Source: Candidatus Levyibacteriota bacterium
GTDB taxonomy: Bacteria; Patescibacteriota; Microgenomatia; Levybacterales; UBA12049
Direction of reading: 5' to 3'
NCBI GenBank assembly: GCA_029260965.1
Contig: JAJDCG010000001.1
Location: forward strand, 312,012 to 376,011
DNA length: 64,000 nt
Numbering within the stretch: the first letter of the stretch is position 1; the number at the start of each line of letters is the position of its first letter. Under the pieces are notes generated by a model. That model saw only the letters and a program-made list of their open reading frames with translations. It was not told where the DNA came from and did not search any database. This document shows, piece by piece, positions 1,602 through 58,499 of the stretch. The position numbers and the translations under genes were made by a program.

Positions 1602-1603
1602 TG

Positions 1604-4136: not shown

Positions 4137-4137
4137 A

Positions 4138-5232: not shown

Positions 5233-5233
5233 G

Positions 5234-6727: not shown

Positions 6728-6729
6728 AA

Positions 6730-7746: not shown

Positions 7747-7749
7747 AGT

Positions 7750-8553: not shown

Positions 8554-8555
8554 AT

Positions 8556-17662: not shown

Positions 17663-17668
17663 GAAATT

Positions 17669-18397
17669 CTAAGCGTAGTGGGGGTTTATTGATTTGACTG
17701 CAGGGAGAATTTTTTTATCAGCCAGATATTTAAGCATTGCTTTCATAGCAACATATGTAAGTGCAATTCCTGCAGCGAAAACAAGCCTTTCTGTTATTAC
17801 AACAGGGATAAGTCCTTTCCAGACCTCAGCTGGTAGATTAAATGCCCAGATCCAGGCAGCTCCTCCAACTGCATGCTGTGTAAATGTAGCACCAAGTGCT
17901 CTCATATAAAGATTTTTCCTAAAGAAATAAGCAATAAATGGAATTGTCCAGAAAAGAGTAAAGTAAGGAACAGTTCTTCCGATTGGATGGGCTACAAATG
18001 CGATTATTGCAATAAGGGTTACAATGAGTGCAAGTTTTGAATTATTTGTTTTTGTTTTTTCTGACTTTTTGTTTTGAGTTAGCACAGCAAAGTAATAAGT
18101 TGCAAAAAGAACAGGGAAAAGTCTGATGATTGATCCAAGCTCAATTGGGGTTTGTTTGATTATAACGTTAGTTACTTCAACTCCAAGAACTGTCAGTATT
18201 CCAAAAAGTGGCCCAAGGAATGCACCAGCAATTGGAGCAAAGAAGTCAAAAAGAGTAAATGATACATTGCCACCACCAATCAGCTGAGTAAAAGGCATAT
18301 TTAGTCCAGCTAGTCCGAGGATAAAAAAGATACCGATGAATTTTAGCTTGTTGCTTGTCACGAGGATTACTTTAATATAAATATTTTCTCTTGTCAA
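17669..18397 (-). CDS. Polytopic membrane protein, possible ECF-type transporter substrate-binding (S) component
   Basis: About 6 predicted TM helices; size and topology resemble ECF S-components. It lies immediately downstream of the CofE-like gene. The family call is tentative. Confidence 0.4.
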   Translation of the reverse strand: MTRENIYIKVILVTSNKLKFIGIFFILGLAGLNMPFTQLIGGGNVSFTLFDFFAPIAGAFLGPLFGILTVLGVEVTNVIIKQTPIELGSIIRLFPVLFATYYFAVLTQNKKSEKTKTNNSKLALIVTLIAIIAFVAHPIGRTVPYFTLFWTIPFIAYFFRKNLYMRALGATFTQHAVGGAAWIWAFNLPAEVWKGLIPVVITERLVFAAGIALTYVAMKAMLKYLADKKILPAVKSINPHYA

Positions 18398-43310: not shown

Positions 43311-44051
43311 ATGAAAGGAGTTATATTAGCAGGAGGGTTGGCAACAAGACTGAGGCCTCTGACGCTTGTTACAAATAAGCATTTGCTTCCAATTTATAAT
43401 AAGCCGATGATTTATTATCCGCTTGAAGCGATGGTAAAAGCAGGCATAAAAGAAGTGCTTGTTACATCATCGCCTGATCATGCTGGACATTTTGCCAATC
43501 TGTTGGGATCTGGAGAAGATTTTGGTCTTAAGCTCTACTATGCAGTGCAGGAGAATCCCAAAGGGGGCATTTCTGATGCGATAATTCTGGCTGATGAATT
43601 TGCAAAAGATGAAAAAATATTGGTACTGTTGGGAGACAATATATTTGGTTTTGATTTAAGAGAATCAGTTGAAATGTTTGAAAAGAGAGAGAAGGGAGCA
43701 ATGACTTTTGGAATCGAGATGCCAACAGAGTCAAAGCAATACGGTGTAATTGAGAAAGATTTAGATGATAATGTGATATCAATTGAAGAAAAGCCTGAAA
43801 ACCCTAAATCAAATATAGCTCAAACCGGAATTTATATGTACGACAACAGGGTTTTTAGTTTTATAAAAGACCTATCTCCATCCCAGAGAGGTGAGCTGGA
43901 GGTAACAGATCTTAATAATTTTTACGTCAAAGAAGGGACTATGAAATGCGAGATGATAGATTGGTGGATTGATGCAGGAACATCATTTGACGAGCTTCTC
44001 CGTGCTAATAAAATGGTTGCAGAAAAAGTAAAATCAGGAGAACTTCAATAA
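43311..44051 (+). CDS. rmlA: Glucose-1-phosphate thymidylyltransferase (short form)
   Basis: MKGVILAGGLATRLRPLT..LLPIYNKPMIYYPL..LGDNIF is near-collinear with RmlA. It lacks the C-terminal ~45 aa. Confidence 0.8.
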   Translation: MKGVILAGGLATRLRPLTLVTNKHLLPIYNKPMIYYPLEAMVKAGIKEVLVTSSPDHAGHFANLLGSGEDFGLKLYYAVQENPKGGISDAIILADEFAKDEKILVLLGDNIFGFDLRESVEMFEKREKGAMTFGIEMPTESKQYGVIEKDLDDNVISIEEKPENPKSNIAQTGIYMYDNRVFSFIKDLSPSQRGELEVTDLNNFYVKEGTMKCEMIDWWIDAGTSFDELLRANKMVAEKVKSGELQ

Positions 44052-44052
44052 T

Positions 44053-45066
44053 ATGAAACTTCTTGTTACCGGTGGGGCGGGTTTTATTGGCTCCAATTTT
44101 ATTCTTTATTGGATGAAGGAACATCCTCAAGATGTGATTGTTAATTTTGACAAACTTACTTATGCTGGGAATCTAGAAAATCTCAAAGAAGTCGAAAAAA
44201 ATCCAAATTACAGTTTTATTCATGGAGATGTTTGTGATCCCGAGGCAGTTGATGGTGCAATGCGGGGAGTAGATATTGTAGTTCATTTTGCAGCCGAGAC
44301 ACATGTTGATAGGTCGATCACTGGCCCTGCAGTATTTGTAATGACAAACGTTGTGGGAACGCAGGTGCTTTTGGATGCAGCAGTGAAAAATGCTGTCAAA
44401 AGGTTCCATCATGTTTCAACTGATGAAGTTTTTGGATCACTTGATCTAGATGATACGAATAAATTTAGTGAACGAACAAATTATAACCCCAGAAGTCCAT
44501 ATTCGGCAAGCAAAGCTGGATCCGATCATTTGGTTAGATCTTATTTTATTACTTATGGTTTGCCCATTACCATTACAAATTGTTCTAATAATTTTGGACC
44601 ATATATGTTTCCTGAGAAATTGATTCCTCTTGCGATTACAAATGTATTGGAAAATAAGAAAATTCCTATTTATGGTGATGGGTTATATGTCAGGGATTGG
44701 TTATATGTTGAAGATCATGCGCGAGCAATTGATGTTGTTTTGAATAAGGGAAAAATAGGTGAAACATATCTTGTTGGTGGAATGACAGATCTTATCCCAA
44801 ATATTGAAATTGCCAAGAGAATACTTAAAATTTTAGGAAAAGATGAAAGCTATATAGAGTTTGTCAAAGACCGCCCAGGGCATGATAGAAAGTATGATGT
44901 TGATTGGTCAAAAATAAAAAAGGAGCTTGGGTGGAAACCACAACATAGCTTTGATGAATATTTAGAAAAAACTATTCAGTGGTATAAGAGTCACGAAGAA
45001 TGGTGGAAGAGAGTAAAGTCAGGTAAATATGAAGAGTATTACAAAAACCAATACGAATCTAAATAA
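44053..45066 (+). CDS. rmlB: dTDP-glucose 4,6-dehydratase
   Basis: VTGGAGFIGSNF, the YSASKA catalytic triad region, and the SDR-extended fold; 337 aa. Confidence 0.9.
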   Translation: MKLLVTGGAGFIGSNFILYWMKEHPQDVIVNFDKLTYAGNLENLKEVEKNPNYSFIHGDVCDPEAVDGAMRGVDIVVHFAAETHVDRSITGPAVFVMTNVVGTQVLLDAAVKNAVKRFHHVSTDEVFGSLDLDDTNKFSERTNYNPRSPYSASKAGSDHLVRSYFITYGLPITITNCSNNFGPYMFPEKLIPLAITNVLENKKIPIYGDGLYVRDWLYVEDHARAIDVVLNKGKIGETYLVGGMTDLIPNIEIAKRILKILGKDESYIEFVKDRPGHDRKYDVDWSKIKKELGWKPQHSFDEYLEKTIQWYKSHEEWWKRVKSGKYEEYYKNQYESK

Positions 45067-45070
45067 CTTC

Positions 45071-45607
45071 ATGTCAAAATCAAGAATCATTTCAAAAGAT
45101 ATAGTTTTTCAGTCGAAAACATTTAGGATTGAGAAAACTAAATATAATAGAGAAGGAAAAATATTTATCAAGGATATTATCATTAGAAGTCCACACGTTA
45201 TAATAATTCCTTTGACAGATAATAATGAAATATATCTTGCTTCAGAATTCAGAGATATCTATCAAGAGGAAAAACTAGAGTTGATCGCTGGATATATGGA
45301 AGATGATGAGGACCCACTAGATGCTGCAAAAAGAGAACTAAAAGAGGAGGGTGGGCTTACAGCAGGTAAGTGGACTTTGCTTGGAACAAAACACACATCT
45401 GCAAATATGGATAGTAAGGTTCATATTTTCCTCGCAGAGGAAATAAAAGAGGGCGGTCAGACACTTGATGAAGATGAGCAGATAAGCTTGACTAAAGTAC
45501 CCCTAGGTGTTGCAGTGGATAAGGTAGTAAATGGAGAAATAGATATATTTTCTTATATTGCGACAATACTTCTTTTTGATAAGTTGAAAAAAGAAGATAG
45601 AGTTTGA
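45071..45607 (+). CDS. NUDIX hydrolase
   Basis: Nudix box GYMEDDEDPLDAAKRELKEEGGL. Start at ATG 45071, 4 nt after the rmlB stop (the track start overlaps by 38 nt). Confidence 0.7.
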   Translation: MSKSRIISKDIVFQSKTFRIEKTKYNREGKIFIKDIIIRSPHVIIIPLTDNNEIYLASEFRDIYQEEKLELIAGYMEDDEDPLDAAKRELKEEGGLTAGKWTLLGTKHTSANMDSKVHIFLAEEIKEGGQTLDEDEQISLTKVPLGVAVDKVVNGEIDIFSYIATILLFDKLKKEDRV

Positions 45608-45610
45608 TCT

Positions 45611-46468
45611 ATGAAAAAAGTTTTTATAACAGGGGGGACTGGGATGGTTGGCTCAAGGATAATTGAGCTACTCGAAGATAAATACAAGTTTACAAATCTA
45701 AGTAGAGAAAGAGGTGTTGACATAGCTGATTTTCAGAGTCTGAAGATGGTCAGAGAAGACAGGGAGCATGATTTTTTTATTCATGTTGCGGCAAAAGCTG
45801 ATGTGGATGGATGTGAGAAAGATAAAAAGGATGGTGAAAGGGGAGATGCGTACAAAATCAATGTATTAGGAACAAAAAATGTAGCAGATGCCTGTTTGGC
45901 TGGTAAAAAAAAGCTTATATATATCTCTACCGATTTTGTATTTGATGGTGATATAGTGCCGGATGGAGGATACAAAGAAACAGATGTGCCATGTCCGATG
46001 AACTGGTACGCAGAGACAAAGTACAGAGGTGAAAAAGAGGTGGAGCAATCAGGTGTCCAATATGTTATTGCTCGAATATCGTATCCATACAGAAAAGAAT
46101 TTGATCCAAAAAAGGACTTTGCGAGGGCAATCAGAGATCGTCTGAAAGATGATAAATCAGTAATTGCAGTGACAGATCACATTATGACTCCGACTTTTAT
46201 TGATGATATTGCACGGGCCCTATATAAATTAGTTGAAAAAGACGCAAATGGAATATATCATGTCACTGGAGAACAAAGCCTTTCGCCATATGAAGCTGCG
46301 TTGATAATAGCGGATAGGTTTGGATTTGATAAAGGTTTGATTGGAAAAACAACAAGAGCTGAGTTTTTCAAAGGAAAAGCATACAGGCCATTTAATATGA
46401 CAATGAATAACAACAAGATAAAAAGTTTGGGTGTCCAAATGAGCAGGTTTGAAGATACACTTCAATAA
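45611..46468 (+). CDS. rmlD: dTDP-4-dehydrorhamnose reductase-like (RmlD family)
   Basis: ITGGTGMVGS, STDFVFDG, YAETKYRGE and the RmlD-type C-terminal region. Confidence 0.7.
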   Translation: MKKVFITGGTGMVGSRIIELLEDKYKFTNLSRERGVDIADFQSLKMVREDREHDFFIHVAAKADVDGCEKDKKDGERGDAYKINVLGTKNVADACLAGKKKLIYISTDFVFDGDIVPDGGYKETDVPCPMNWYAETKYRGEKEVEQSGVQYVIARISYPYRKEFDPKKDFARAIRDRLKDDKSVIAVTDHIMTPTFIDDIARALYKLVEKDANGIYHVTGEQSLSPYEAALIIADRFGFDKGLIGKTTRAEFFKGKAYRPFNMTMNNNKIKSLGVQMSRFEDTLQ

Positions 46469-46470
46469 TA

Positions 46471-47349
46471 ATGAATAAACTAACTGTTGCCCTTGCAACT
46501 TACAATGAAGAATCCAATATCAAGGACTGTCTTGAGTCGGTAATGGGTTTGGCAGATGAAATCGTGATAGTTGATGGCAATTCAACAGATAAGACAGTTG
46601 GGATTGCGAGAGAATTTGGTGCAAGAATAGAATTAACTGACAATCCTAAAATTTTTCACATCAACAAACAAAAGGCACTGGATATGTCTGTAAACAATTG
46701 GGTGCTACAGCTTGATGCAGATGAACGCGTGACAAAGGATCTTGCTCATGAGATAAAAAAAATAATTCAATTGTCTGATAAAGAGATTGATGATTATGAG
46801 GCGAATATGGGTGGAGCAAAACTGTTCAGGAGACATCAGAAGCTCATCGAAGAAAGAGACGGGCAGATAGGTAAAAAAGACGGTCGATATGTCGCTTTTT
46901 TTATTCCGAGGTTAAATTATTTTCTTGGAAAATACCTAAGACATGGCGGTGTATATCCAGATGGGGTAATCAGGCTGGTAGATAGACGATACGCACACCT
47001 TCCCTGTGTTGATGTGCATGAGCAGTTTGTAATTGATGGTAGAGTCGGTTGGCTCAAAAATCCATTATTTCACATAGATTCTCCTACATTCTCGCGATAT
47101 TGGCAAAGAAATAATAGGTACACAGCTTTAATTGGAGATCAGATAAAAAATGAGAAAAAAAATTTACTAACACCTTTGAGATATCTGATCTTTTTTCCTC
47201 TGAGGTGGTTTTTGTTAACTTCCTTTCGTCATAAAGGTATACTTGATGGATGGAGGGGTATTTTGTTTGCTTTTTTTTCATCGCTCAGATTCCCAATTGG
47301 CTACATGAAGTATTTGAAAAGTTTTTTTTCAAATACTGTGTTAAAATAA
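46471..47349 (+). CDS. Family 2 glycosyltransferase
   Basis: VALATYNEESNI...IVIVDGNSTDKT plus DAD/DxD motifs. Confidence 0.8.
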   Translation: MNKLTVALATYNEESNIKDCLESVMGLADEIVIVDGNSTDKTVGIAREFGARIELTDNPKIFHINKQKALDMSVNNWVLQLDADERVTKDLAHEIKKIIQLSDKEIDDYEANMGGAKLFRRHQKLIEERDGQIGKKDGRYVAFFIPRLNYFLGKYLRHGGVYPDGVIRLVDRRYAHLPCVDVHEQFVIDGRVGWLKNPLFHIDSPTFSRYWQRNNRYTALIGDQIKNEKKNLLTPLRYLIFFPLRWFLLTSFRHKGILDGWRGILFAFFSSLRFPIGYMKYLKSFFSNTVLK

Positions 47350-47363
47350 ATAATTATTAAATT

Positions 47364-48650
47364 ATGAAGATTACTATCGTAGGACATGGATATGTAGGTT
47401 TAGTTACGGCATGTGTTTTTGCTGATTTTGGCAATGATGTGTGGGTGATTGGTCGAAATCCTGAAAAAATTGAGAGATTAAAAAAAGGAGATCCTATTTT
47501 TTATGAACCTGAGTTAAAAGAGCTTTTGGGTAGCGTGCTCGAAAAGGGCAAGATACATTTTACTCTTGACTACAAAGAATCAGTGGGTGTATCAGATATT
47601 GTGTTTACTGCTGTAGGTACTCCTCCGCAGACAACTGGAGAGGCAGATCTTTCAATGGTGTTTGATGTTGCTGAGAAAATCGGTAAAAATTTGAAAAAGG
47701 GATTTACTGTTGTTTCTTGCAAGAGCACTGTTGCTGTAGGTACCAATAAAAAAGTTGCAGAGTTGATTGAGAAAGTGAAGCCAGTGGGTGCAGAGTTTGC
47801 AGTTGCATCCTGTCCTGAGTTTTTGAGTCAGGGTACAGCAGTTGATAACACGTTTCATCCCGACCGTGTGGTTATAGGCTCGGACTCTCAAAAAGCAATT
47901 GAGCTCTTGAAGCAGCTTCATGAGCCGATAGATGCGCCAAATATTGTTACAGACCTGGCATCAGCAGAGCTGATAAAATATTCGGCAAATGCGATGCTCG
48001 CAACTAAAATTTCGTATGCAAATGCAATAGCACTGTACTCTGAAAAGGCTGGTGCAAATGTGGAGTTGGTTTTGGATGCAGTTGGCATGGATAAGAGAAT
48101 AGGTCGTATATTTATGAATCCTGGAGTTGGTTATGGGGGTTCATGTCTCCCCAAAGACGTAAAGGCTCTTATTCAGATTGGCCGATCAATGGGCATTGAT
48201 ACAAGCTTTTTTGATGCAGTTGAAGAGGTAAATCTTGTTATGCGTCAAAACGTGATTGATAAGATCGTAAAACTCTCAAGAGATAAAAATATTGCGATAT
48301 TAGGTCTTAGTTTTAAGCCAAATACAGATGATATTCGTGAAGCTCCAAGCGTATACATTATTAAAGAACTTCTTGAAAGAGGATTTAGTATAAATGCCTA
48401 TGATCCAGAAGCGATGAACAAGGTTAAGGATGTAGTAGGTGAAAAGATTAATTATTTCGACAATCCATATGATGCTGCAGAGGGGGTTGATACGGTTGTT
48501 GTTCTTACTGAATGGAACGAATTTAGGGAACTTGATCTTGAGAAATTAAAGAAAGAAATGAAGGGAGATATATTAATTGACGGACGCAATATTTACAATA
48601 CCGAACGTGTTCGCAAAATAGGTTTGAAATATTTTGGTGTTGGTAGATAA
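47364..48650 (+). CDS. ugd: UDP-glucose 6-dehydrogenase family (nucleotide-sugar dehydrogenase)
   Basis: N-terminal Rossmann IVGHGYVGLV, catalytic GGSCLPKD, and the UDPG/MGDP dehydrogenase C-domain. Confidence 0.85.
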   Translation: MKITIVGHGYVGLVTACVFADFGNDVWVIGRNPEKIERLKKGDPIFYEPELKELLGSVLEKGKIHFTLDYKESVGVSDIVFTAVGTPPQTTGEADLSMVFDVAEKIGKNLKKGFTVVSCKSTVAVGTNKKVAELIEKVKPVGAEFAVASCPEFLSQGTAVDNTFHPDRVVIGSDSQKAIELLKQLHEPIDAPNIVTDLASAELIKYSANAMLATKISYANAIALYSEKAGANVELVLDAVGMDKRIGRIFMNPGVGYGGSCLPKDVKALIQIGRSMGIDTSFFDAVEEVNLVMRQNVIDKIVKLSRDKNIAILGLSFKPNTDDIREAPSVYIIKELLERGFSINAYDPEAMNKVKDVVGEKINYFDNPYDAAEGVDTVVVLTEWNEFRELDLEKLKKEMKGDILIDGRNIYNTERVRKIGLKYFGVGR

Positions 48651-48653
48651 AGA

Positions 48654-49610
48654 ATGAAAAGAGTACTTATTACAGGAGCAACTGGATTTGTAGGAAAGTA
48701 TCTGATTGACCACTTGGTAGAGATTGGTAATTCTGAAATTTTTGGCACATCCTACGTTGATTCTGATCTTTCTCAGTTTTCGAAACAAAAAAATGTTAAA
48801 ATTAAAAAAGTTGATTTAACAAGTTTTGATCAAACAAAAAATCTGATAGATGATATAAAACCTGATCAAATTTATCATCTTGCAGCCCTCACATCTCCTG
48901 CTGATAGCTTTACTGACGGAACAAGAGTTATTTTGTCAAACATCGGAATTCAGATGAATCTTTTGAATGCTGTGAGGGGATCGAAGCTTGATAAGACTCG
49001 AGTTTTAATAGTTTCCTCAGGTGAGGTGTATGGCATGGTTGATCAATCTGATTTACCTATCAATGAGGAGACGAAGATGCGCCCTGCAAATCCATACGCG
49101 GTATCAAAAATAGCACAAGACTATCTGGCACTACAATACCATCTCTCATATAAAATGAATATTGTCCGCATCCGACCTTTTAATCATACAGGGCCGGGCC
49201 AGACTGATACATTTGTTGTCCCAGCTTTTGCCCGTCAAATTGCAGAAATAGAAAAGGGACAAAAAGATCCTGTCATAAAAGTCGGGAGTCTTGATGCAAA
49301 ACGTGATTTTTCAGATGTCCGTGATGTTGTCAGGGGTTACGTGCTTCTCATGGAAAAAGGAGAAAGCGGAGAGGTGTATAATCTCGGTTCAGGAAAATCT
49401 CTAAAAATACAATCAATTCTGGATACACTTCTTTCCTTTTCTGATATAAAAATTATAGTTGAGAAAGATCCTGCCAGAATGCGTCCGATTGAAGTGCCTG
49501 AGATTTATTCGAATTTTTCTAAAGTTGCGAAAGCAACAGGTTGGAAGCCAGAGATTGGTATTGAAAAAACATTGAAAGACACTCTGGACTATTGGAGAGG
49601 AGTAGTTTAG
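48654..49610 (+). CDS. NAD-dependent epimerase/dehydratase, probable GDP-4-keto-6-deoxy-D-mannose reductase (Rmd-like)
   Basis: ITGATGFVG, YAVSK, and IRPFNHTGPGQ (the Gmd/Rmd-clade signature). It sits immediately upstream of gmd. Confidence 0.55.
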   Translation: MKRVLITGATGFVGKYLIDHLVEIGNSEIFGTSYVDSDLSQFSKQKNVKIKKVDLTSFDQTKNLIDDIKPDQIYHLAALTSPADSFTDGTRVILSNIGIQMNLLNAVRGSKLDKTRVLIVSSGEVYGMVDQSDLPINEETKMRPANPYAVSKIAQDYLALQYHLSYKMNIVRIRPFNHTGPGQTDTFVVPAFARQIAEIEKGQKDPVIKVGSLDAKRDFSDVRDVVRGYVLLMEKGESGEVYNLGSGKSLKIQSILDTLLSFSDIKIIVEKDPARMRPIEVPEIYSNFSKVAKATGWKPEIGIEKTLKDTLDYWRGVV

Positions 49611-49621
49611 AATAATAAATT

Positions 49622-50593
49622 ATGAAGAAAGCTTTAATAACAGGAATAACTGGACAAGATGGATCATATCTTGCTGAATTTCTTTTGAGCAAAGGCTACA
49701 AGGTTTATGGTACTGTTCGTAGGCTTAGTGCTCCAAATATCGGAAACATAAAACATTTTCAGGATAAAGTAGAGTTATTATCTGCTGATCTTTTTGATCA
49801 GTCTTCTATTTCTCAGGCATTGACAAAATCAGAACCAGATGAAGTGTATAATCTCGCAGCTCAATCTTTTGTGAAAGCATCATTTGATCAACCAGTTCTA
49901 ACTGGAGAATTTACAGGAATAGGTGTTACAAAAGTGTTGGAGGCGATAAGATCAGTTAACAAAAAAATAAAATTTTACCAAGCATCAAGTAGTGAGATGT
50001 TTGGAAAAGTTACTGAGACTCCACAGAAAGAGACAACCAGGTTTTACCCTCGTAGTCCATATGGTGTTGCCAAAGTTTATGGACACTACATAACCATGAA
50101 TTATCGCGAGAGCTATGATATGTTCGCATGCTCGGGAATTTTATTCAACCATGAATCGCCAAGGCGGGGAATAGAGTTTGTAACTCGCAAGATTACCAAT
50201 GCTGTCGCGCGGATAAAACTTGGCAAGCAGGAGAAACTGGAGCTTGGGAATATGGATGCCAAACGCGACTGGGGATTTGCTGGAGATTATGTGGAGGCAA
50301 TGTATCTCATGCTGCAGCAGGACGTGCCTGATGATTATGTGGTAGCAACAGGGGAAGCGCATTCTGTTCGCGAATTTGTGGAGCTAGCCTTTGAAGCTGC
50401 GGGTATCAGTGACTGGGAGAAGTATGTGGGTTCTGATAATCCTGACTTTTTGCGCCCTGCGGAAGTTGACTACCTGATAGGTGATGCCAGTAAAGCCAAG
50501 AAAGTTCTTGGATGGACACCCAAAACAAGTTTTAAAAAGCTTGTTGAAATGATGGTCAAATCCGATCTGGATCGGGTAAAAGCCGAAAGATAA
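49622..50593 (+). CDS. gmd: GDP-mannose 4,6-dehydratase
   Basis: [34 protein letters not shown] are Gmd hallmarks. Confidence 0.9.
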
Positions 50594-50645
50594 TTACCAA
50601 TCCTCTCTATTTCAAAACCCTCCAAATTTTAGTAAGATATACATT

Positions 50646-51608
50646 ATGTTAAAAGTATTGATTGCAGGTGGTGCTGGGTTTATCGGGTCGCATTTGTGTA
50701 AAAAATTCATTGAAAGAGGAGACAGTGTTTATTGTATAGACAATCTCATTACCGGGGATAAAAATAATATAATTCCACTTCTTGATAATCCTAATTTCAA
50801 CTATCTAGAATACGATATAACCAATTCTCTGGTTGAAATGTTATCGAAAATAGGAGACCTTGATTATGTTTTGCATCTGGCCAGTCCAGCCAGCCCCAAT
50901 AAAAATAGTCCCAGAAGTTATATAAATTTTCCGATTGAGACCCTTCTTGCCAATTCACTTGGCACATATAATCTGCTAAATATTGCCAAAGAGAAACAGA
51001 GCCGTTTTCTTTTCGCATCAACCTCCGAAGTATATGGAAATCCCGAGGTCACACCTCAACCAGAGTCTTACTTTGGGAACGTAAATCCCAATGGTGTTAG
51101 ATCTGTTTATGATGAAGGTAAGAGGTTTAGTGAGGCAATGACGTTTGGTTATAGGAGAAAATTTGGTATTGATGCAAGAATTATCCGTATTTTCAATACC
51201 TATGGTCCTTTCATGCAAAAAGATGATGGACGTGCGGTTTCGGAATTTATTAACCAAGCAATTGCTAACGTCCCAATTACTGTATTTGGAGACGGACAAC
51301 AAACAAGAAGTTTTTGTTATATTGATGACATGGTCGAGGGCATCATGAAGGCAATTGAGGCAAAAGAAACAGCTGGTGAGGTTATAAACCTAGGGAATCC
51401 TGATGAAAGAAAAATATCAGATATTGCAGCAATAATAAAACAGATGACAGGGAGTAGTTCTGAGGTTGTGTTTCAAGAATTACCCCAAGATGACCCCAAG
51501 GTCAGAAAGCCTGATATAACAAAAGCAAAGGAACTACTCGGCTGGGAGCCGACAATAAGTCTTGAGGAAGGACTTAAGCAAACTATTCTCTATTTTAGAA
51601 ACACATGA
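50646..51608 (+). CDS. uxs: UDP-glucuronate decarboxylase (UDP-xylose synthase family)
   Basis: IAGGAGFIGSHL...DNLITGDKNNI...YDEGKR is collinear with UXS/ArnA-decarboxylase-type SDRs. Confidence 0.75.
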   Translation: MLKVLIAGGAGFIGSHLCKKFIERGDSVYCIDNLITGDKNNIIPLLDNPNFNYLEYDITNSLVEMLSKIGDLDYVLHLASPASPNKNSPRSYINFPIETLLANSLGTYNLLNIAKEKQSRFLFASTSEVYGNPEVTPQPESYFGNVNPNGVRSVYDEGKRFSEAMTFGYRRKFGIDARIIRIFNTYGPFMQKDDGRAVSEFINQAIANVPITVFGDGQQTRSFCYIDDMVEGIMKAIEAKETAGEVINLGNPDERKISDIAAIIKQMTGSSSEVVFQELPQDDPKVRKPDITKAKELLGWEPTISLEEGLKQTILYFRNT

Positions 51609-52768
51609 AGATTGTTGTAATACTACCTACATATAACGAGCGAGAAAATATAAAAGAAATGTTACCTCTTCTCGAGGAGAAAATTTTTCCACAGATCAAA
51701 AATCATGATATGCAAATTTTAGTAGTTGATGATAATTCTCCTGATGGTACCTCAATTGAAGTGAGAAATTTCATGAAGAAATGGAAAAATATAGATCTTT
51801 TGAGTGGTGATAAAAACGGCCTGGGTGCTGCATACGTGCGTGGGATGAAGCATGCTATGGGAAAGATGAAGGCAGGGGCAGTGATGGAATTCGATTCTGA
51901 TTTTCAGCATGATCCACAGGATATACCACGTTTGGTTGACGCGCTGGATCTGGGTGCAGATTACGTGATTGGTAGTCGTTATGTAAAAGGAGGATCAATT
52001 CCCAAGGAGTGGGGAATTGATAGAAAATTTTTGAGTGTTTTTGGCAGTCTTTTTACCCGAATTGTCTGGCTAAATTTTCAGATACATGATATGACATCTG
52101 GATTCAAGCTTACAAAAACTGAATTTCTTAAAAAAATTGATCTAGATAATCTGATTTCTAATAATTTCGCATATAAGATGCAAATACTTCATGATGTCGT
52201 AAAAAAAGAGGCAAAAGTAGTCGAGGTGCCAATAGCATTTCTAGAGCGGGAGAAGGGAGCAAGTAAAATTTCTAAGAAAGATCAATTTGAGTCGCTATAT
52301 GTTGTCCTTAGACTTGCTGTGTACGATCATAAAAGATTTGTGAAATTTTTGATTGTTGGCGGAACGGGATTCTTGATCCAATATGTTGTTCTGTATCTTT
52401 CTGTAAGTGCGAATCTTGAACAATTTGTAGGCGCTGGGTTGTCAGCAGAAGCAGCAATTCTTTCGAATTTTTTCCTTAATAATATTTGGACTTTTAATGA
52501 CACGAAGGAGGTCAAAGAAAAGGGAAATATTTTTGCAAGGCTCATCAAGTTTAATACTGCTTCCCTTGGTGCAATTGGCATTCAGACGCTTTCTATATAT
52601 ATTGCTGTTAAGCTTTTGGGTGAAAAGATTTCTATACTTGGCCATGCGGTACATACTTCCTTTATTGTTTTATTGCCTACGATTGTACTTTTGGTAATAC
52701 CACTGAATTATTTTATTTACAATAAGCTAATTTGGAAAACACAATACCTCAAGAAAAAACAGATTTGA
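51605..52768 (+). CDS. Polyprenyl-phosphate glycosyltransferase (DPM1/ArnC-like GT2) fused to a C-terminal GtrA-like membrane domain
   Basis: N-terminal GT2 (VVILPTYNEREN...VVDDNSPDGT) followed by a ~120-aa 4-TM GtrA-like domain. Confidence 0.75.
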   Translation: MKIVVILPTYNERENIKEMLPLLEEKIFPQIKNHDMQILVVDDNSPDGTSIEVRNFMKKWKNIDLLSGDKNGLGAAYVRGMKHAMGKMKAGAVMEFDSDFQHDPQDIPRLVDALDLGADYVIGSRYVKGGSIPKEWGIDRKFLSVFGSLFTRIVWLNFQIHDMTSGFKLTKTEFLKKIDLDNLISNNFAYKMQILHDVVKKEAKVVEVPIAFLEREKGASKISKKDQFESLYVVLRLAVYDHKRFVKFLIVGGTGFLIQYVVLYLSVSANLEQFVGAGLSAEAAILSNFFLNNIWTFNDTKEVKEKGNIFARLIKFNTASLGAIGIQTLSIYIAVKLLGEKISILGHAVHTSFIVLLPTIVLLVIPLNYFIYNKLIWKTQYLKKKQI

Positions 52769-52770
52769 TT

Positions 52771-54303
52771 ATGGGAAAGAAAACTAAATTAATTATTTTA
52801 ATTTTAATACTCGCACTTTCGATTTTCCTTCGCCTCTATCGCATTTCAGATTATATGACTTTTTTGGGAGATGAGGGTAGAGACGTGGCAGTTGCTAGAG
52901 AAATACTTCATGGGGATTTCACCCTTCTTGGACCTCGAGCATCAGCAGGAGATTTTTTTCTTGGTCCTATTTATTACTACATGATAACGCCATTTTTGTG
53001 GATATTTAACTATGACCCTGTTGGTCCTGCTGTAATGGTTGCCTTATTTGGTGTGGCGACTGTGTATCTGGTTTATTTTACAGGTAAAAAGTTTTTTGAC
53101 GAGCGGGCAGGACTTTTTGCGGCCAGTTTGTATGCGGTCTCGCCACTTGTGATTACTTATTCTCGATCATCCTGGAATCCCAATGTCTTACCTTTTTTCG
53201 CACTTCTCATAATGTATGTAGTATATAAAGCGACATACAGAAAAGACGCATGGAAATTTTACTTATTGGCAGGATTTCTTCTCGGGATTGCGCTACAACT
53301 TCATTATTTAGCATTGCTTTTAGGAGTTATAGTTGGTGTATATGTAGTATCGGCATCACTTTTTTTGAATAAGAAAAAATCTGTTCTGACTGTCCCGAAG
53401 AATTATCTCGAGATACTGATAGGTTTTCTGATAGGTTTTTCGCCCTTTTTGGCATTTGAGATAAGACATGGATTCCCGAATATAAAAACTATTTCGGGAT
53501 TCATTCTGGGTGACACCCTAAATAAGGGTTATGATGCAGGTATTAGTTATTTTACCATAGTTGTGGATGTGTTTTTTAGAACTTTTGGCAGGCTTGTTTT
53601 TAATTTTCCAACTCCTGACCGCTACGAAAAATTTTCTCAACTCACACTGGATGTTTTTGGAGCCATAATTGTTCTGATTGCTTTTGCTTCTATCATTGCA
53701 TTGTTTTTCCGAAAAGATAAGCTTTCGGTAAGACTTCTTTTGATATGGCTTGTTTTTGGTTTGTTGCTTTTTGGTTTCTACAAAAAGCCTATTTTTGATT
53801 ATTATCTTACATTTCTTTTCCCACTACCATTTCTACTTGTGGGCAGCATGCTTTCTTTTCTTTCGAATTGGGAGAAGCGGACTGGATTTACCTTGAGTAT
53901 TATTTTGTTTGCTGGTGTTTTTGCCTACAATTTAACAGGTGTGCCTTTTCTTGATGAGCCCAATAGGCAGAAAGATCAGATAAAAACAATATCAGAATTT
54001 GTAATTGAGAAGTCTGATTACAAACCATATAATTTTGCGCTTTTAGCAAGTGGTAATTCAGATCATGGGTATCGTTATTACTTTGACATACTTGGGCATG
54101 AGCCTGTGAGGATCGATAATACGATAGATGATCCAGAAAGAAAAACTGTTACTGATCAGCTGCTTGTTGTTTGTGAGGAAAAAGTTTGTGAACCACTGGG
54201 GCATCCGCTTTTTGATATTGCAGGTTTTGGTAGGGCAAGCGTTGAGGAGGAGTGGAGTATTTCAGTTGTTAAAGTTTATAAACTCGTCCCTTATGTTGAG
54301 TAA
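52771..54303 (+). CDS. ArnT/PMT-family (GT83/GT39-like) polytopic membrane glycosyltransferase
   Basis: ATG 52771 (track start is TTG). N-terminal pattern RLYRISDYMTFLGDEGRDVAVARE..., with an Asp/Glu-rich first loop and ~12 TM helices. Confidence 0.7.
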   Translation: MGKKTKLIILILILALSIFLRLYRISDYMTFLGDEGRDVAVAREILHGDFTLLGPRASAGDFFLGPIYYYMITPFLWIFNYDPVGPAVMVALFGVATVYLVYFTGKKFFDERAGLFAASLYAVSPLVITYSRSSWNPNVLPFFALLIMYVVYKATYRKDAWKFYLLAGFLLGIALQLHYLALLLGVIVGVYVVSASLFLNKKKSVLTVPKNYLEILIGFLIGFSPFLAFEIRHGFPNIKTISGFILGDTLNKGYDAGISYFTIVVDVFFRTFGRLVFNFPTPDRYEKFSQLTLDVFGAIIVLIAFASIIALFFRKDKLSVRLLLIWLVFGLLLFGFYKKPIFDYYLTFLFPLPFLLVGSMLSFLSNWEKRTGFTLSIILFAGVFAYNLTGVPFLDEPNRQKDQIKTISEFVIEKSDYKPYNFALLASGNSDHGYRYYFDILGHEPVRIDNTIDDPERKTVTDQLLVVCEEKVCEPLGHPLFDIAGFGRASVEEEWSISVVKVYKLVPYVE

Positions 54304-54389: not shown

Positions 54390-54539
54390 TTAGTTTGCTC
54401 CTATTTTGTACATTCCTGTACCACAAACTGGACACTTACCCTTGGTAGCTGGTTTACCGTTTTTCATTGTTACGTCTTCTGCATTTTCAAAATCTCTTTT
54501 CGCTCTGCATTTTACGCAATAACCTACTTTTGCTGGCAT
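54390..54539 (-). CDS. 49-aa zinc-ribbon protein (MPAKVGYCVKCRAKRDFENAEDVTMKNGKPATKGKCPVCGTGMYKIGAN), DUF5679-like
   Basis: AAAGGAGGTGA SD 8 nt upstream of the ATG (54537-54539). CxxC...CPVC zinc ribbon; followed by a terminator. Below the ORF-track length cutoff. Confidence 0.5.
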   Translation of the reverse strand: MPAKVGYCVKCRAKRDFENAEDVTMKNGKPATKGKCPVCGTGMYKIGAN

Positions 54540-54588
54540 AGTTTTATTCACCTCCTTTCATATTTCTTTTATTTATCATGTTTCGTAT

Positions 54589-54864
54589 TTACAGAAAGAG
54601 TTTGATTAATACCTCAATCATCATGATTACGCCAGTGAAAACAACAGTTTTTCTAAGATCTTTTGTAAAGTCTCTACTATTCAGGGCCTTAGATTGACTA
54701 TCAGTAGGTGTATAACTAAAAGTAGGACTTTGAAATTCTGTTTGTGGTTGATGAGTGGTAAAGTGTTGTTTTTCCTGTGGAATTTGGGCAATTTGATAAT
54801 TCATAGCCTGCCGTTTAGTTTCGGCAAGAATTTTTTCTCTCCTGGTTTTTTTTCGTTTAGCCAT
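54589..54864 (-). CDS. Hypothetical 91-aa protein, basic N-terminus and C-terminal TM
   Basis: ORF only, with no clear SD. It lies 49 nt upstream of the zinc-ribbon gene on the same strand. Confidence 0.3.
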   Translation of the reverse strand: MAKRKKTRREKILAETKRQAMNYQIAQIPQEKQHFTTHQPQTEFQSPTFSYTPTDSQSKALNSRDFTKDLRKTVVFTGVIMMIEVLIKLFL

Positions 54865-56618: not shown

Positions 56619-58499
56619 ATGACTGACTATAAGGATCATCATAAAGACAAAAAGAAAAATGTTATTCGTGCCCACCGAAAGCATCTCAACCTCTTTTATC
56701 TCCTCTCTCTTGCAGTGATTATTTTAGTTATGCCTCTTATAGTTTTACAAGTCCAAGAGCGTACTGTTTTGCGTCAGGAGGCCGCCCCCTCGTGCTCTAG
56801 TAGGACAGAAGCTAGTTGTGGTAATACTGAGTGTAAGTTAGTAAGCTCGTTAACAGAAGGAGTGTGTAAGGGGGTTGTGGGTTCAACAAAGCCGTGCAGT
56901 ACCTACAATAGAAGTGGATGTTCGGCAAATAGTACTGTATGCACTTGGTATCCCAAGAAGGTTTGTGTTTCTAACCCAAATTTTTCACCTTCAAAAAAAG
57001 GTCCGGGATCGAGCTGTACTACGGGAGCTGTGTGTATATCAGGTAAGTGTATTGACAATATCTGTAAAAACGACAATGGAGGAAGCTGTACAACGGGGAA
57101 GGTCTGTGTTTCTGGATATTGTGGTTCAGATAACAAGTGCGCAGCAGCTAGTGCTCCAAATTCTGATGAACAGTATCATGGTAAGGTCTCTTGTGATAAT
57201 GGTCGTGGAACTTGTTTTATAAGATCTAGGCTTTCAGGCACAGTACCGAGTTATTGGCATACAGGTAAATGTCCTGGTAGCCCAGCAGTGCAATGTTATT
57301 CAGATAGGCCTGCAACTAACAACCCTCCTCCTGTTAACAACCCGCCAGTAAATGATTCACCAAAAACAAATCCACCTCCAGCAGGCGATGATACTCGCTG
57401 TACCAGTCAGGGAGGTCAATGTCAGCTGGGGCAAGCAAATAATGTGGGAGGACCATGCACCGTGAACGGTAAGGCTGGAACCGTGAAGATAAATTTATGC
57501 TCTGGTGGCAATGACAGGAGATGTTGTGTGCCAAATGGGAGTAATCCAACTAATCCAAACAATCCCATTCAACCAAATCCCAATAATCCTTCAAATAAAA
57601 TTGACATGCCAGATTACTGTAAAGTGGGGAATTGTTCAAATGAAGAAAGAACGATCATAGGAATTCCCAATGCCAAGGATGCTTGCGGTAGTATTGCCCG
57701 CTCATGTTGTAGGCCAGCTAGGTCTTCTCGTACCAGCACAACATGTGAATTAGCTCCACCAAAGACAGATCCCAATAACCCAAATCAGCCTGTTGTAAAT
57801 CCTGTAAACCCAGTTACATCAAAACTAGGTCTGTCTATAAAGCTGCAGGGTATAGGCCCTGATGGTAACTCAAATCCACAGTCTCAGCAAATACCGATTG
57901 TACTCAGACTTTATAAAGATAATGTTACGGCACAAAACATAACAGCATCAAATAATGTTCTGGCTGCTGCGTCAATAGTGGTTGAAAGCACGGCATCATA
58001 TGATAGCGCATCTGGATATTTCGTAAATGACGATTTTGACATGGGTGAGGTGCCAGAGGGAAATTATAAAATTATTGTACAAAACCCTAAATTTCTTGAT
58101 GTAAAATTGACTAATTCAACAACAGGAACAGATGTGTTTAATATACAATCGGGACAAAAAATCATCGCCAGTACGGTCTCTATGAGGGGTGGAGATGTGC
58201 AGCCTGAGCCAAGGGGTAATAATTATGTAGACCTTTTTGATTACAATGCAGTTATTGGTTGTACTTCAGGCCAGCCAGAAAGCGCGTGTCTTAATAAAAA
58301 ACTTGCTGATATCAACGATGATGGTGTAGTTGATCAGGAAGATCTTGATATTGTCAGATCCAATTTTGGTCAAGAAGGAATAGCATTTGATACTGGAGAG
58401 TTTGTTTGCAAGTCAGATCCTGAATGTACTGCGTCTGGAAGCAAAAATGCGCTTCAGCTTTGTCGCCTCCTCTGTACAAAGAAGCCAGATAGGCTTTGA
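56619..58499 (+). CDS. Cysteine-rich secreted protein with Pro/Asn-rich linkers and a C-terminal dockerin-like Ca-binding repeat
   Basis: N-terminal TM, then about 50 Cys residues in repeated CxxGxC modules (TGAVCISGKCIDNIC / TGKVCVSGYCGSDNKC), NNPPPVNNPP linkers, and DINDDGVVDQEDLDIVRSNFG (dockerin/EF-hand-like). Confidence 0.6.
   Translation: MTDYKDHHKDKKKNVIRAHRKHLNLFYLLSLAVIILVMPLIVLQVQERTVLRQEAAPSCSSRTEASCGNTECKLVSSLTEGVCKGVVGSTKPCSTYNRSGCSANSTVCTWYPKKVCVSNPNFSPSKKGPGSSCTTGAVCISGKCIDNICKNDNGGSCTTGKVCVSGYCGSDNKCAAASAPNSDEQYHGKVSCDNGRGTCFIRSRLSGTVPSYWHTGKCPGSPAVQCYSDRPATNNPPPVNNPPVNDSPKTNPPPAGDDTRCTSQGGQCQLGQANNVGGPCTVNGKAGTVKINLCSGGNDRRCCVPNGSNPTNPNNPIQPNPNNPSNKIDMPDYCKVGNCSNEERTIIGIPNAKDACGSIARSCCRPARSSRTSTTCELAPPKTDPNNPNQPVVNPVNPVTSKLGLSIKLQGIGPDGNSNPQSQQIPIVLRLYKDNVTAQNITASNNVLAAASIVVESTASYDSASGYFVNDDFDMGEVPEGNYKIIVQNPKFLDVKLTNSTTGTDVFNIQSGQKIIASTVSMRGGDVQPEPRGNNYVDLFDYNAVIGCTSGQPESACLNKKLADINDDGVVDQEDLDIVRSNFGQEGIAFDTGEFVCKSDPECTASGSKNALQLCRLLCTKKPDRL

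Follow-up and report, generated by a model that had tools for sequence, protein, structure and literature searches.

A conserved Levybacteria operon ends in a predicted DPMS-like polyprenyl-phosphate glycosyltransferase and an adjoining GT-C enzyme

The three genes studied here, which encode a UDP-xylose synthase (UXS), a GT2 glycosyltransferase fused to a GtrA-like domain (GT2::GtrA) and a membrane glycosyltransferase of the GT-C type, appear to close an operon of 11 genes for glycosylation of the cell envelope in Levybacteria (CPR/Patescibacteria), lying at its distal end. They were analysed in a 64,000-nucleotide stretch of DNA, hereafter the window. We tentatively read the last two proteins, with a probability somewhat short of even, as a polyprenyl-phosphate-mannose (or other GDP-sugar) system that resembles Ppm1/Pmt and has a self-contained flippase-like domain. 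On the evidence, a lipid donor of the mannose type (GDP-sugar) is more likely than the lipid-linked xylose proposed in the initial annotation.

Results

The three genes make up the 3' end of an operon of 11 genes on the same strand (43311-54303), which is composed of the following features.

43311..44051, + strand: RmlA-like sugar-1-phosphate nucleotidyltransferase, gene 1 of the operon (Pfam NTP_transferase, 199 bits; NCBIfam rmlA, 251 bits, below the equivalog cut-off)
44053..45066, + strand: dTDP-glucose 4,6-dehydratase, RmlB (TIGR01181, 476 bits, above the cut-off of 365)
45029..45607, + strand: NUDIX hydrolase, NudE-like (Pfam NUDIX; NCBIfam NudE, 70 bits, below the cut-off)
45611..46468, + strand: RmlD-like 4-keto-6-deoxyhexose reductase (RmlD_sub_bind, 199.7 bits; TIGR01214, 183.8 bits, below the cut-off of 224)
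46471..47349, + strand: GT2 glycosyltransferase (Glycos_transf_2, 59 bits)
47364..48650, + strand: UDP-glucose 6-dehydrogenase, UGDH (three UDPG_MGDP_dh domains; TIGR03026, 429.6 bits, above the cut-off of 189.8; TuaD, 436 bits)
48654..49610, + strand: Rmd, GDP-6-deoxy-D-lyxo-4-hexulose reductase of the GDP-D-rhamnose branch (best solved relative 2pk3, 271 bits, E 1e-79)
49622..50593, + strand: GDP-mannose 4,6-dehydratase, GMD (TIGR01472, 440.5 bits, above the cut-off of 415)
50646..51608, + strand: UDP-glucuronate decarboxylase / UDP-xylose synthase, UXS, 320 aa (full-length homology to human UXS1)
51605..52768, + strand: DPMS-type polyprenyl-phosphate glycosyltransferase, GT2::GtrA, 387 aa (Pfam and structure matches)
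52771..54303, + strand: GT-C membrane glycosyltransferase of the PMT_2 family, final gene of the operon, 510 aa (Pfam and AlphaFold/Foldseek)

The start of the NUDIX reading frame overlaps the 3' end of the RmlB gene, and the equivalent position is occupied in many loci. The GT2 gene at 46471..47349 is peculiar to the cluster of this genome, other loci having no counterpart at the equivalent place. No RmlC was found in the whole window. The UXS and GT2::GtrA reading frames overlap by 4 bp (ATGA). The GT-C frame could begin at TTG 52732 or at ATG 52771, and the alignment of orthologues identifies the latter as the true start. UGDH produces UDP-GlcA, which is the substrate of UXS; the two genes are not neighbours, since Rmd and GMD lie between them. 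Profile searches of the 11 operon genes bore out the absence of aminotransferase and formyltransferase genes noted in the initial annotation, and found no ArnD deformylase. UGDH (47364-48650) and the other nucleotide-sugar genes immediately upstream, which the initial annotation does not mention, lead us to read the gene order differently: the operon is a 'nucleotide-sugar supermarket', of which UXS, GT2::GtrA and GT-C are the tail. GMD and Rmd, encoded two genes upstream, imply that GDP-mannose is present in the cell.

The gene order of the operon, through to SecDF, is shared by about 80 Levybacteria genomes. Because the whole order is a lineage-wide synteny, adjacency carries little information on the pathway. 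GT2::GtrA is followed directly by GT-C in all 77 loci that hold both genes. UXS is located directly upstream of GT2::GtrA in 67 of 75 loci, with a spacing below 25 bp in nearly all and the 4-bp overlap in 28 of 66. It is missing from the other 8 of the 75, which fall on about six separate branches and include the clade nearest to the window. In these loci the GT2::GtrA/GT-C pair is intact, with its donor-site and active-site residues unchanged. The best 120 UXS homologues include none from the large contigs of the UXS-less genomes, and a divergent UXS might be encoded elsewhere in them. The pair always has GMD and Rmd beside it, and directly adjoins GMD in the loci without UXS.

These arrangements bear on the proposal that UGDH and UXS make UDP-xylose, that GT2::GtrA uses it to form polyprenyl-P-beta-D-xylopyranose, and that GT-C then xylosylates an extracytoplasmic acceptor, in a pathway that resembles Arn but lacks its amino and formyl steps. 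The Arn operon sets a precedent for such a grouping, since its ArnA, ArnC and ArnT unite decarboxylase, Pren-P GT2 and GT-C functions. The tight upstream position of UXS speaks for the proposal, as does the pairing of a bona fide UXS with UGDH in one operon. Against it stand the separation of these two genes within a syntenic order and the independent losses of UXS, through which the pair kept its active-site residues. We consider it improbable: the xylose donor had been drawn from adjacency, and the synteny, the losses and the DPMS-type residues described below all weaken it. As a separate observation, which goes against a mannose donor, the neighbourhood of the UXS gene that so often precedes the pair holds no further gene for an enzyme that would obviously consume UDP-xylose.

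The UXS protein matches the Pfam Epimerase and GDP_Man_Dehyd families. Its best solved relative is human UXS1 (hUXS1; PDB 2B69/4GLL), to which it is homologous over the full length (314 bits, E 7e-93), as compared with 150 bits for 4zrm, 147 bits for the UDP-GlcA epimerase 6zl6 and about 89 bits for ArnA. It also stands nearer to the UXS group of extended SDRs than to RmlB or GalE. In hUXS1, the SDR triad consists of T118, Y147 and K151, and Ser119, Glu120 and Arg277 are specific to UXS, UDP-GlcA 4-epimerases having Ser, Thr in place of Glu, Arg (PMC3438964). Alignment to 4gll/2b69 places T126, S127, E128, Y155, K159 and R287 of the window protein at T118, S119, E120, Y147, K151 and R277. All 68 orthologues share five of these six residues (S127, E128, Y155, K159 and R287), and each of them has Thr or Ser at position 126. 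With all six signature residues, the protein is predicted to be a bona fide UXS-type decarboxylase/reductase, as had been claimed, and a different SDR specificity, considered earlier as an alternative, does not agree with S127, E128 and R287 together with the T/Y/K triad. Unlike hUXS1, which has an N-terminal membrane anchor, the window UXS is a soluble bacterial protein, whose predicted activity would turn UDP-GlcA into UDP-xylose with the 4-keto intermediate retained.

GT2::GtrA can be described as composed of a GT2 domain (residues 1-240; Pfam Glycos_transf_2, 96.7 bits over residues 5-178) and a C-terminal GtrA-like domain with four transmembrane (TM) helices (residues 243-385; GtrA_DPMS_TM, 61.4 bits over residues 247-377). 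Its AlphaFold model (pLDDT 85.4) has four long C-terminal helices. The reported fusion was thus correct, both domains being in one reading frame. It is not a novelty, since GT2 plus GtrA is the native architecture of the type-III dolichyl-phosphate mannose synthase (DPMS) of Pyrococcus furiosus (PfDPMS; PDB 5MLZ/5MM0/5MM1; PMC5526996, PMC12992685), in which one chain likewise carries a GT2 catalytic domain, interface helices and four TM helices of the GtrA-like kind. Pfam, AlphaFold and Foldseek all recover this monomeric architecture. The sequence aligned to PfDPMS (5mlz) with 177 bits over residues 1-338, and to ArnC and GtrB with 41 and 30 bits, respectively. The model aligned to 5mlz with E 9e-26 and TM-scores of 0.63/0.68 over 386 columns, at an identity of 33%, compared with 19% for ArnC and 16% for GtrB. 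GT2::GtrA is therefore a full-length homologue of PfDPMS over catalytic and TM domains alike, much nearer to PfDPMS than to ArnC or GtrB. The distance from ArnC is a further argument against lipid-linked xylose.

The residues of PfDPMS that contact GDP-Man (PMC5526996) are retained in GT2::GtrA as D43, G72, L73, D97, D99, Q101, H102, R125, R140, S144, R215 and K221, and these positions are mostly invariant among 78 Levybacteria orthologues. D43, G72, L73, D97 and H102 are among the contacts to guanine and mannose. The metal/diphosphate motif DxDxQ of the GT-A domain is D97-S98-D99-F100-Q101, in which both aspartates occur in 78 of 78 orthologues. Position 101 is Gln in 51, Ser in 15, Phe in 11 and Tyr in 1, so that 66 of 78 have Gln or Ser, as in Dpm1-type enzymes; position 102 is His in 72 and Phe in 6. 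R125, R140 and S144, which correspond to R117, R131 and S135 of the PfDPMS acceptor-phosphate site, and R215 and K221, which correspond to R202 and K208 of its A-loop, are each found in all 78. At two donor-contact positions, GT2::GtrA has G-L and DxDxQ-H like DPMS, while ArnC has G-Q and Q-N and GtrB has G-K and Q-D (comparison with UDP-sugar enzymes after PMC12690121). L73, D97 and F188 keep L69, D89 and F177 of PfDPMS, which are linked to the axial O2 of mannose (PMC5526996). Both the DPMS-type residues where ArnC and GtrB differ and this O2 site count against xylose, whose O2 is equatorial. PfDPMS weakly tolerates other donors (PMC5526996), a point in favour of xylose.

Type-III DPMS is defined by DADxQHPP, SRY (R117), R131, S135, K178, the N248/N277 pocket and the gate F338 (PMC12992685). 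In GT2::GtrA the [ST]RY, Arg and Ser elements are present. The motif DADxQHPP (x = L, F or Y) reads DSDFQHDP; among the 78 orthologues, DAD occurs in 70 and Asp at position 95 in 69, the usual form being DAD[LF][QS]HDP. K178 (KIL) is replaced by A189, and by Thr, Ala or Ile among orthologues, where the surrounding motif is F-A-Y-K or Y-T-F-Q. Q259 and N288 occupy the positions of N248 and N277, which have been proposed to form a pocket for the head group (PMC12992685), and are invariant in 34 orthologues, in an alignment in which TMH4, with F338, did not align. One of the two polar-pocket Asn is therefore kept, N248 being changed to Gln. The altered DADxQHPP motif and the lost K178 are observations that go against a mannose donor. 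PfDPMS further differs from the window protein, which is bacterial, mesophilic and from the CPR, has a predicted donor, and is encoded directly before a GT-C gene.

Homology does not fix the sugar, because enzymes with UDP-GlcNAc as donor, WpsA for example (PMC10821137), share the DPMS-like fold and the DxDxQ machinery. It could be neither mannose nor xylose, and instead D-rhamnose (6-deoxy-mannose) from GDP-D-rhamnose, made by GMD and Rmd, or else a sugar taken from a UDP-sugar (Glc, GlcNAc or GlcA), for which the GtrB, GacI/WpsA and RgtE systems are models. We regard this as rather unlikely, although less so than xylose. The constant proximity of GMD and Rmd to the pair, a nucleotide pocket that suits a GDP-sugar, and the replacement of K178, which contacts O4/O6 of mannose in PfDPMS, would fit it. 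Precedents are WpsA for GlcNAc (PMC10821137) and GtrB for Glc (PMC4728340), both DPMS-like Pren-P glycosyltransferases. However, the contacts to O3 and O2 of mannose are conserved as H102 and D97, and the G-L and Q-H positions are occupied otherwise in enzymes that use UDP-sugars. We know of no polyprenyl-P-D-rhamnose system.

The GT-C protein matches Pfam PMT_2 (62 bits, cut-off 26.1) and PMT (43.9 bits, cut-off 22.7). In its AlphaFold model (pLDDT 89.3, pTM 0.89), it adopts the GT-C fold of ArnT/PMT/STT3, with an extracytoplasmic C-terminal domain. As in other enzymes of the PMT/ArnT type (GT39/GT83), a multi-TM core is combined with juxtamembrane helices in the first extracytoplasmic loop. 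Foldseek aligned the model to AglB (E 3e-8) and to ArnT (5ezm/5f15, E 1e-7), and also to ALG12, STT3, PglB and Pmt1/2; ArnT gave the best full-length TM-score (0.64/0.61). The loop-1 motif FLGDEGRD directly follows TM1, with D34 in 80 of 80 orthologues and E35 in 79 of 80, and Cys468 and Cys473 are present in all 80. An acidic DE/Dx motif in loop 1 is a hallmark of these enzymes (Pmt1 D77/E78, Mtb Pmt D55/E56, CmArnT D55; PMC8698208). The earlier assignment as an ArnT/PMT-like transferase agrees with these profiles and with the fold, and the catalytic acid on which it depended is there. At the level of sequence, no match to solved ArnT or solved Pmt was found. ArnT orthology was rejected, since the equivalog model NF009784 scored 19.3 bits where 567 are required.

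Discussion

The general logic, in which a polyprenyl-phosphate sugar would be made inside the cell and used by a GT-C enzyme outside, is well supported by homology. On the cytoplasmic face, the 387-aa Dpm1/Ppm1-type enzyme would charge polyprenyl phosphate with a single sugar taken from a nucleotide sugar; we infer that its donor is most likely GDP-mannose, providing mannose, or a close GDP-sugar. The GtrA-like four-helix domain would act as an anchor and may help the polyprenyl-P-sugar across the membrane. GT-C, with the loop-1 Asp-Glu on the outer face, would then use the lipid-linked sugar on an extracytoplasmic acceptor, probably a protein, secreted or at the cell surface, or else a wall polymer, and not lipid A. 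To our knowledge, CPR bacteria do not make lipid A. UXS, together with the upstream UGDH, would supply UDP-xylose as one of several activated sugars from the operon, which are probably used by cytoplasmic glycosyltransferases encoded elsewhere.

This scheme resembles actinobacterial Ppm1/Pmt O-mannosylation, which acts on secreted proteins in a monoderm bacterium and likewise combines a GDP-Man-type Pren-P-sugar synthase with a GT-C enzyme that has the loop-1 DE and about 11 TM helices (PMC8698208). Unlike in Ppm1/Pmt, the window synthase has its own GtrA-like domain, the synthase and GT-C genes are adjacent, and GT-C has a weak PMT profile match (43.9 bits) and a distinct C-terminal Cys-pair domain. 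The Arn pathway for L-Ara4N lipid A (ArnA, ArnB, ArnC, ArnD, ArnT, ArnE/F) resembles the window in that one strand encodes pentose chemistry starting from UDP-GlcA, along with a Pren-P GT2 and an ArnT-fold enzyme of the GT-C type. Of the Arn-like logic first proposed, manufacture inside and use outside holds, but the GT2 is DPMS-like and not ArnC-like, the decarboxylase is UXS-type and not ArnA-type, the aminotransferase, formyltransferase and deformylase are absent, and lipid A is not expected in the lineage. Three-component Gtr systems (GtrA flippase, GtrB Und-P-Glc synthase and GT-C Gtr*; Mann and Whitfield; PMC11127046 Fig. 1) have three equivalent functions, and at the window locus the synthase, the GtrA-type module and GT-C are all encoded together, in two adjacent ORFs. 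Here, however, the GtrA-like module is fused to the synthase, which belongs to the DPMS clade and not to GtrB (16-18% identity).

If xylose were the sugar, the locus would share an extracytoplasmic GT-C and a polyprenyl-monophosphate pentose with known lipid-linked pentose systems (Und-P-Ribf/Xylf with GT136, PMC11127046; decaprenyl-P-arabinose; mycobacterial MTX capping). The donors of those systems are furanoses made from PRPP or methylthioadenosine by UbiA-type or other enzymes, not from a UDP-pentose by a GT2, and we found no literature on polyprenyl-P-xylose from UDP-xylose, which also argues against this donor. Had the enzyme switched to UDP-xylose, this would be the first genetically defined pathway to a lipid-linked xylopyranose donor, a PRPP-independent pentose route and, in bacteria, the equivalent of the dolichyl-phosphate xylose activities that have orphan EC entries. 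The conserved GT-C would then xylosylate wall polymers or surface proteins of Levybacteria. Since a mannose-type donor is favoured over lipid-linked xylose, the locus would be a fairly ordinary, conserved cell-surface glycosylation operon.

The trio and its operon

Positions 50646-54303 of the window hold three closely packed ORFs on the + strand, and both the ORF calls and the Pfam matches bear out the families assigned in the initial annotation. The three genes close an 11-gene operon, which lies on one strand with almost no gaps.

Features of the operon and its 3' flank
43311-54303, +, operon in the order RmlA-like, RmlB, NUDIX, RmlD-like, GT2, UGDH, Rmd, GMD, UXS, GT2::GtrA, GT-C
47364-48650, +, UDP-glucose 6-dehydrogenase (UGDH), which makes the UXS substrate
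50646-51608, +, extended SDR, 320 aa, assigned as UDP-xylose synthase (UXS)
51605-52768, +, GT2::GtrA, 387 aa, 4-bp overlap with the SDR ORF; Pfam Glycos_transf_2 (residues 5-178) and GtrA_DPMS_TM (residues 247-377)
52771-54303, +, GT-C, 510 aa; PMT_2 (62 bits) and PMT (43.9 bits)
54390-54551, -, DUF5679 zinc-ribbon mini-protein, 53 aa, convergent to the operon
54589-54864, -, 91-aa ORF with a hydrophobic C-terminal tail, convergent to the operon

An alignment of 35 orthologues places the start of the GT-C gene at the ATG at 52771 and not at a TTG further upstream. The closest solved relative of Rmd is 2pk3 (271 bits), and GMD scores over the cut-off of TIGR01472. RmlA-, RmlB- and RmlD-like genes are found at 43311-46468, although RmlC (3,5-epimerase) is missing among the window ORFs of at least 120 aa; the dTDP branch may therefore yield a sugar other than L-rhamnose, or RmlC may be encoded elsewhere. 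The NUDIX gene (NudE-like, 45029-45607), which shares 38 nt with the 3' end of RmlB and has the same spot in many Levybacteria loci, may encode a nucleotide-sugar hydrolase for pathway control. The extra GT2 gene between RmlD and UGDH (46471-47349) has no counterpart there in the other 80 loci; its best NCBIfam match, far under the cut-off, is a SunS-type peptide S-glycosyltransferase.

The genes 3' of GT-C are small and convergent, and the DUF5679 gene is at the same spot in two further loci (L081 and L083). The other window genes are of housekeeping type (purine synthesis, SecA, GroEL, MurJ, LepA, FtsEX, SecDF). An Rfam scan of the window found no RNA element, and promoter and terminator scans gave background level only. 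The de novo purine operon (100-14916, -) looks complete, with PurC, PurE, PurK, PurB, PurH, PurQ/PurL and PurD, a pair of PurP-like genes of archaeal type (DUF1246/DUF1297; 4138-5232 and 6730-7746) and a PurF fused to a PurN-like formyltransferase (709 aa, 12787-14916); a full purine operon is unusual in a CPR-type reduced genome. An F420-0:gamma-glutamyl ligase-family gene (16907-18397, -) adjoins an ECF-transporter S component, an odd pairing in an organism in which F420 use is not expected. A 626-aa secreted protein (56619-58499) is Cys-rich, with Pro/Asn/Thr/Ser linkers and a weak dockerin-like C-terminal match. It is not conserved in other loci and nothing ties it to the operon; that it is a glycosylation substrate is conceivable.

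The decarboxylase

Among solved structures, the 320-aa SDR matches human UDP-xylose synthase (hUXS1) over its full length with 314 bits (E 7e-93), versus at most 150 bits for the next families and about 89 for ArnA. The active site of hUXS1 is defined by six residues, T118, S119, E120, Y147, K151 and R277, of which E120 and R277 are UXS-specific, other residues being found there in UDP-GlcA epimerases (PMC3438964). The equivalents in the window SDR are T126, S127, E128, Y155, K159 and R287. The S, E, Y, K and R are unchanged in 68 of 68 UXS orthologues, and the T126 position is T or S. On the full-length match, these residues and UGDH as supplier within the operon, the identification of the SDR as UXS is well supported. 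It had been proposed initially with the reservation that the SDR could have a different specificity, which the residues and scores do not bear out; the same tests rule out an epimerase or a dehydratase.

The GT2::GtrA protein

By a wide margin, the closest solved relative of GT2::GtrA is PfDPMS, the type-III dolichyl-phosphate mannose synthase of Pyrococcus furiosus (5MLZ), with 177 bits over residues 1-338, the first TM helices included. ArnC scores 41 bits and GtrB 30 bits. The AlphaFold model (pLDDT 85.4) has 5MLZ as its top fold match (E 9e-26, TM 0.63/0.68, 33% identity, 386 columns), followed by ArnC (19% identity) and GtrB (16-18%). Human DPM1, which we take as a lead only, is 33% identical over the whole catalytic domain. 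Orthology to ArnC is ruled out by these scores and by equivalog models that stay far under their cut-offs, and with it falls the ArnC-like label given initially. The proposed fusion to GtrA stands: a profile search found GtrA_DPMS_TM, and the TM domain is at present named GtrA/DPMS in Pfam. The "fusion" is the native architecture of a PfDPMS-type enzyme.

The PfDPMS residues that touch GDP-Man, the metal and the acceptor phosphate were taken from PMC5526996. Their counterparts in GT2::GtrA are D43, G72, L73, D97, D99, Q101, H102, R125, R140, S144, R215 and K221, and most of them are unchanged across 78 Levybacteria orthologues. His is kept at H102 in 72 of the 78. Variation is greater at Q101, where 51 have Q, 15 S, 11 F and one Y. 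In PfDPMS, L69, which follows the conserved Gly, stacks on guanine, and H94, which follows DxDxQ, contacts mannose O3 (PMC5526996). The first position is Leu in both the window protein and PfDPMS, Gln in ArnC and Lys in GtrB; the second is His in both, Asn in ArnC and Asp in GtrB, in agreement with the ArnC and GtrB motifs of PMC12690121. In these alignments, the two donor-contact positions set the enzyme classes apart.

The strict type-III definition (PMC12992685) has the motif DADxQHPP, which in GT2::GtrA reads DSDFQHDP. K178 is missing, and of the two pocket positions of PfDPMS, N248 is replaced by Gln (Q259) while N277 is kept (N288); TMH4 is without alignment. Because of the motif and the missing K178, the protein is classified from its sequence as a DPMS-clade enzyme of type-III-like architecture and not as a strict type-III member. 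A GDP-mannose-type donor is likely by homology but not certain, since WpsA, which uses UDP-GlcNAc, also has a DPMS-like fold and the DxDxQ machinery (PMC10821137).

The orthologues of GT2::GtrA (L001-L080) fall into two deep clades, one 63-72% and the other 37-47% identical to the protein of the window, unlike the neighbouring GT-C, which is uniformly 50-60% identical. Identities are also bimodal in UGDH, UXS and RmlA, which suggests cassette exchange inside the conserved operon.

The GT-C protein

Neither the single sequence of the GT-C protein nor a 35-sequence profile matched solved structures significantly, and matches came by fold comparison only. The AlphaFold model (pLDDT 89.3, pTM 0.89) predicts an unambiguous GT-C fold, with matches to AglB/STT3/PglB (E about 1e-8 to 1e-5), ALG12, AftA/B and Pmt1/2/4. 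ArnT gives the best full-length superposition (TM 0.64/0.61). The sequence FLGDEGRD lies immediately past TM1; all 80 orthologues have D34, and 79 of the 80 have E35. The two make up the loop-1 DE motif, which is regarded as the hallmark of PMT-type GT-C enzymes and has its counterpart in ArnT D55 (PMC8698208). A small alpha/beta domain with two invariant cysteines takes up the last 110 residues, in keeping with a placement outside the cell. The family has more than 3,300 matches and about 60% identity across Levybacteria.

The ArnT/PMT-like transferase proposed initially thus keeps its PMT-like part, in the GT-C fold, the PMT_2 and PMT profiles and the catalytic acid (D34/E35). It is not an ArnT orthologue: the ArnT equivalog model has a cut-off of 567, and the protein reaches 19.

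Synteny and coupling to UXS

We scanned one genome per species and compared the best 80 loci of 506 relatives, nearly all labelled Levybacteria or Patescibacteria. By tblastn, almost all 80 have the same gene order from Sua5 and a CAP-domain (cysteine-rich secretory family) gene to SecDF, so the adjacency of the trio is lineage-wide synteny and not an independently recurring association. Among these loci, a "Roizmanbacteria" match (P0090) and the best UXS homologues, no independent context was found and the order was the same throughout. UGDH and UXS, which are successive pathway steps, are kept apart by Rmd and GMD, and the colinear, Arn-like reading of the gene order does not fit.

UXS lies immediately 5' of GT2::GtrA in 67 of the 75 loci with enough upstream sequence, with the 4-bp overlap in 28 of 66. 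In the other eight (L004, L006, L018, L049, L054, L059, L064 and L070; region 7700-8850 of most), UXS is cleanly missing, GMD abuts GT2::GtrA and UGDH is kept. They occupy about six separate places in a neighbour-joining tree of GT2::GtrA proteins, L004, L006 and L018 being the clade nearest the window. The GT2::GtrA and GT-C pair is intact in all eight, with donor-site residues identical to those of UXS-containing loci. Two UXS-less genomes have contigs of 1.3 Mb and 1.6 Mb, and not one of the 120 best UXS homologues is on these, a weak indication, as the 120 go no lower than 65% identity. The converse is seen in locus L082 (9034-11793, on a 1.14-Mb contig), where an intact UXS adjoins a GT2 of 284 aa that stops short of the GtrA domain and a GT-C broken up into ORFs of 240 and 236 aa; pseudogenes, long-read frameshift errors or an assembly artefact could account for these. 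Taken together, these results argue that the pair is not dependent on UXS. In other loci, the variable DNA between GT-C and DUF4446 has SUF, POR and hydrolase genes and gave no acceptor or glycosyltransferase clue.

Donor and proposed mechanism

From the directly supported identities, folds, catalytic residues and conservation we infer an order of events. The DPMS-type enzyme would charge polyprenyl phosphate on the inner side, the GtrA-like domain would serve as an anchor and perhaps as a flipping aid, as proposed for PfDPMS (PMC12992685), with Q259 and N288 at the pocket positions, and GT-C would transfer the sugar on the outer side. Lipid A is excluded as acceptor by lineage biology.

GDP-mannose must be present in the cell, since GMD needs it, and mannose or a GDP-mannose-type sugar is the donor that we favour, tentatively. 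Another sugar, either D-rhamnose from the adjacent GMD and Rmd or a UDP-hexose or HexNAc, is a less probable candidate. In the polyprenyl-phosphate-xylose system first proposed, the identities of UXS, GT2::GtrA and GT-C stand; xylose itself, weakened by the DPMS-type residues and by the pair without UXS in eight loci, is an improbable donor.

Functionally, GT2::GtrA and GT-C make up a three-component, Gtr-like or Ppm1/Pmt-like system in which synthase and GtrA module are one protein. Of the lipid-linked pentose donors known so far, namely Und-P-Ara4N, decaprenyl-P-Araf, PRPP-derived Und-P-Ribf/Xylf (GT136) and MTX (PMC11127046), none comes from UDP-xylose via a GT2. Our literature search found no published donor of that origin, and nothing relevant on polyprenyl-, undecaprenyl- or dolichyl-phosphate xylose or on CPR glycosylation.

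Under the strict motif definition, the type-III architecture, which may flip its own product, was reported only in hyperthermophilic archaea (PMC12992685). Full-length homologues of PfDPMS architecture (GT2 plus a GtrA-like domain of 4 TM) are abundant in mesophilic CPR, with 7,082 matches at E<=1e-5 among the candidates scored (including proteins P0121-P0240). These predicted proteins show that the DPMS-plus-GtrA architecture, in relaxed form, is common in mesophilic bacteria, contrary to an archaea-only distribution.

The CPR/Patescibacteria are uncultured, episymbiont-type bacteria whose surface chemistry is essentially unknown. The operon of the trio is conserved across Levybacteria, and no other machinery for lipid-linked glycosylation was seen in the window, which makes the operon a defined candidate for envelope decoration in an uncultured phylum. 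With the bacterial homologues, the self-flipping idea (PMC12992685) could be tested in a second setting, and xylose, if that reading were true, would be a new lipid-linked donor for glycobiology.
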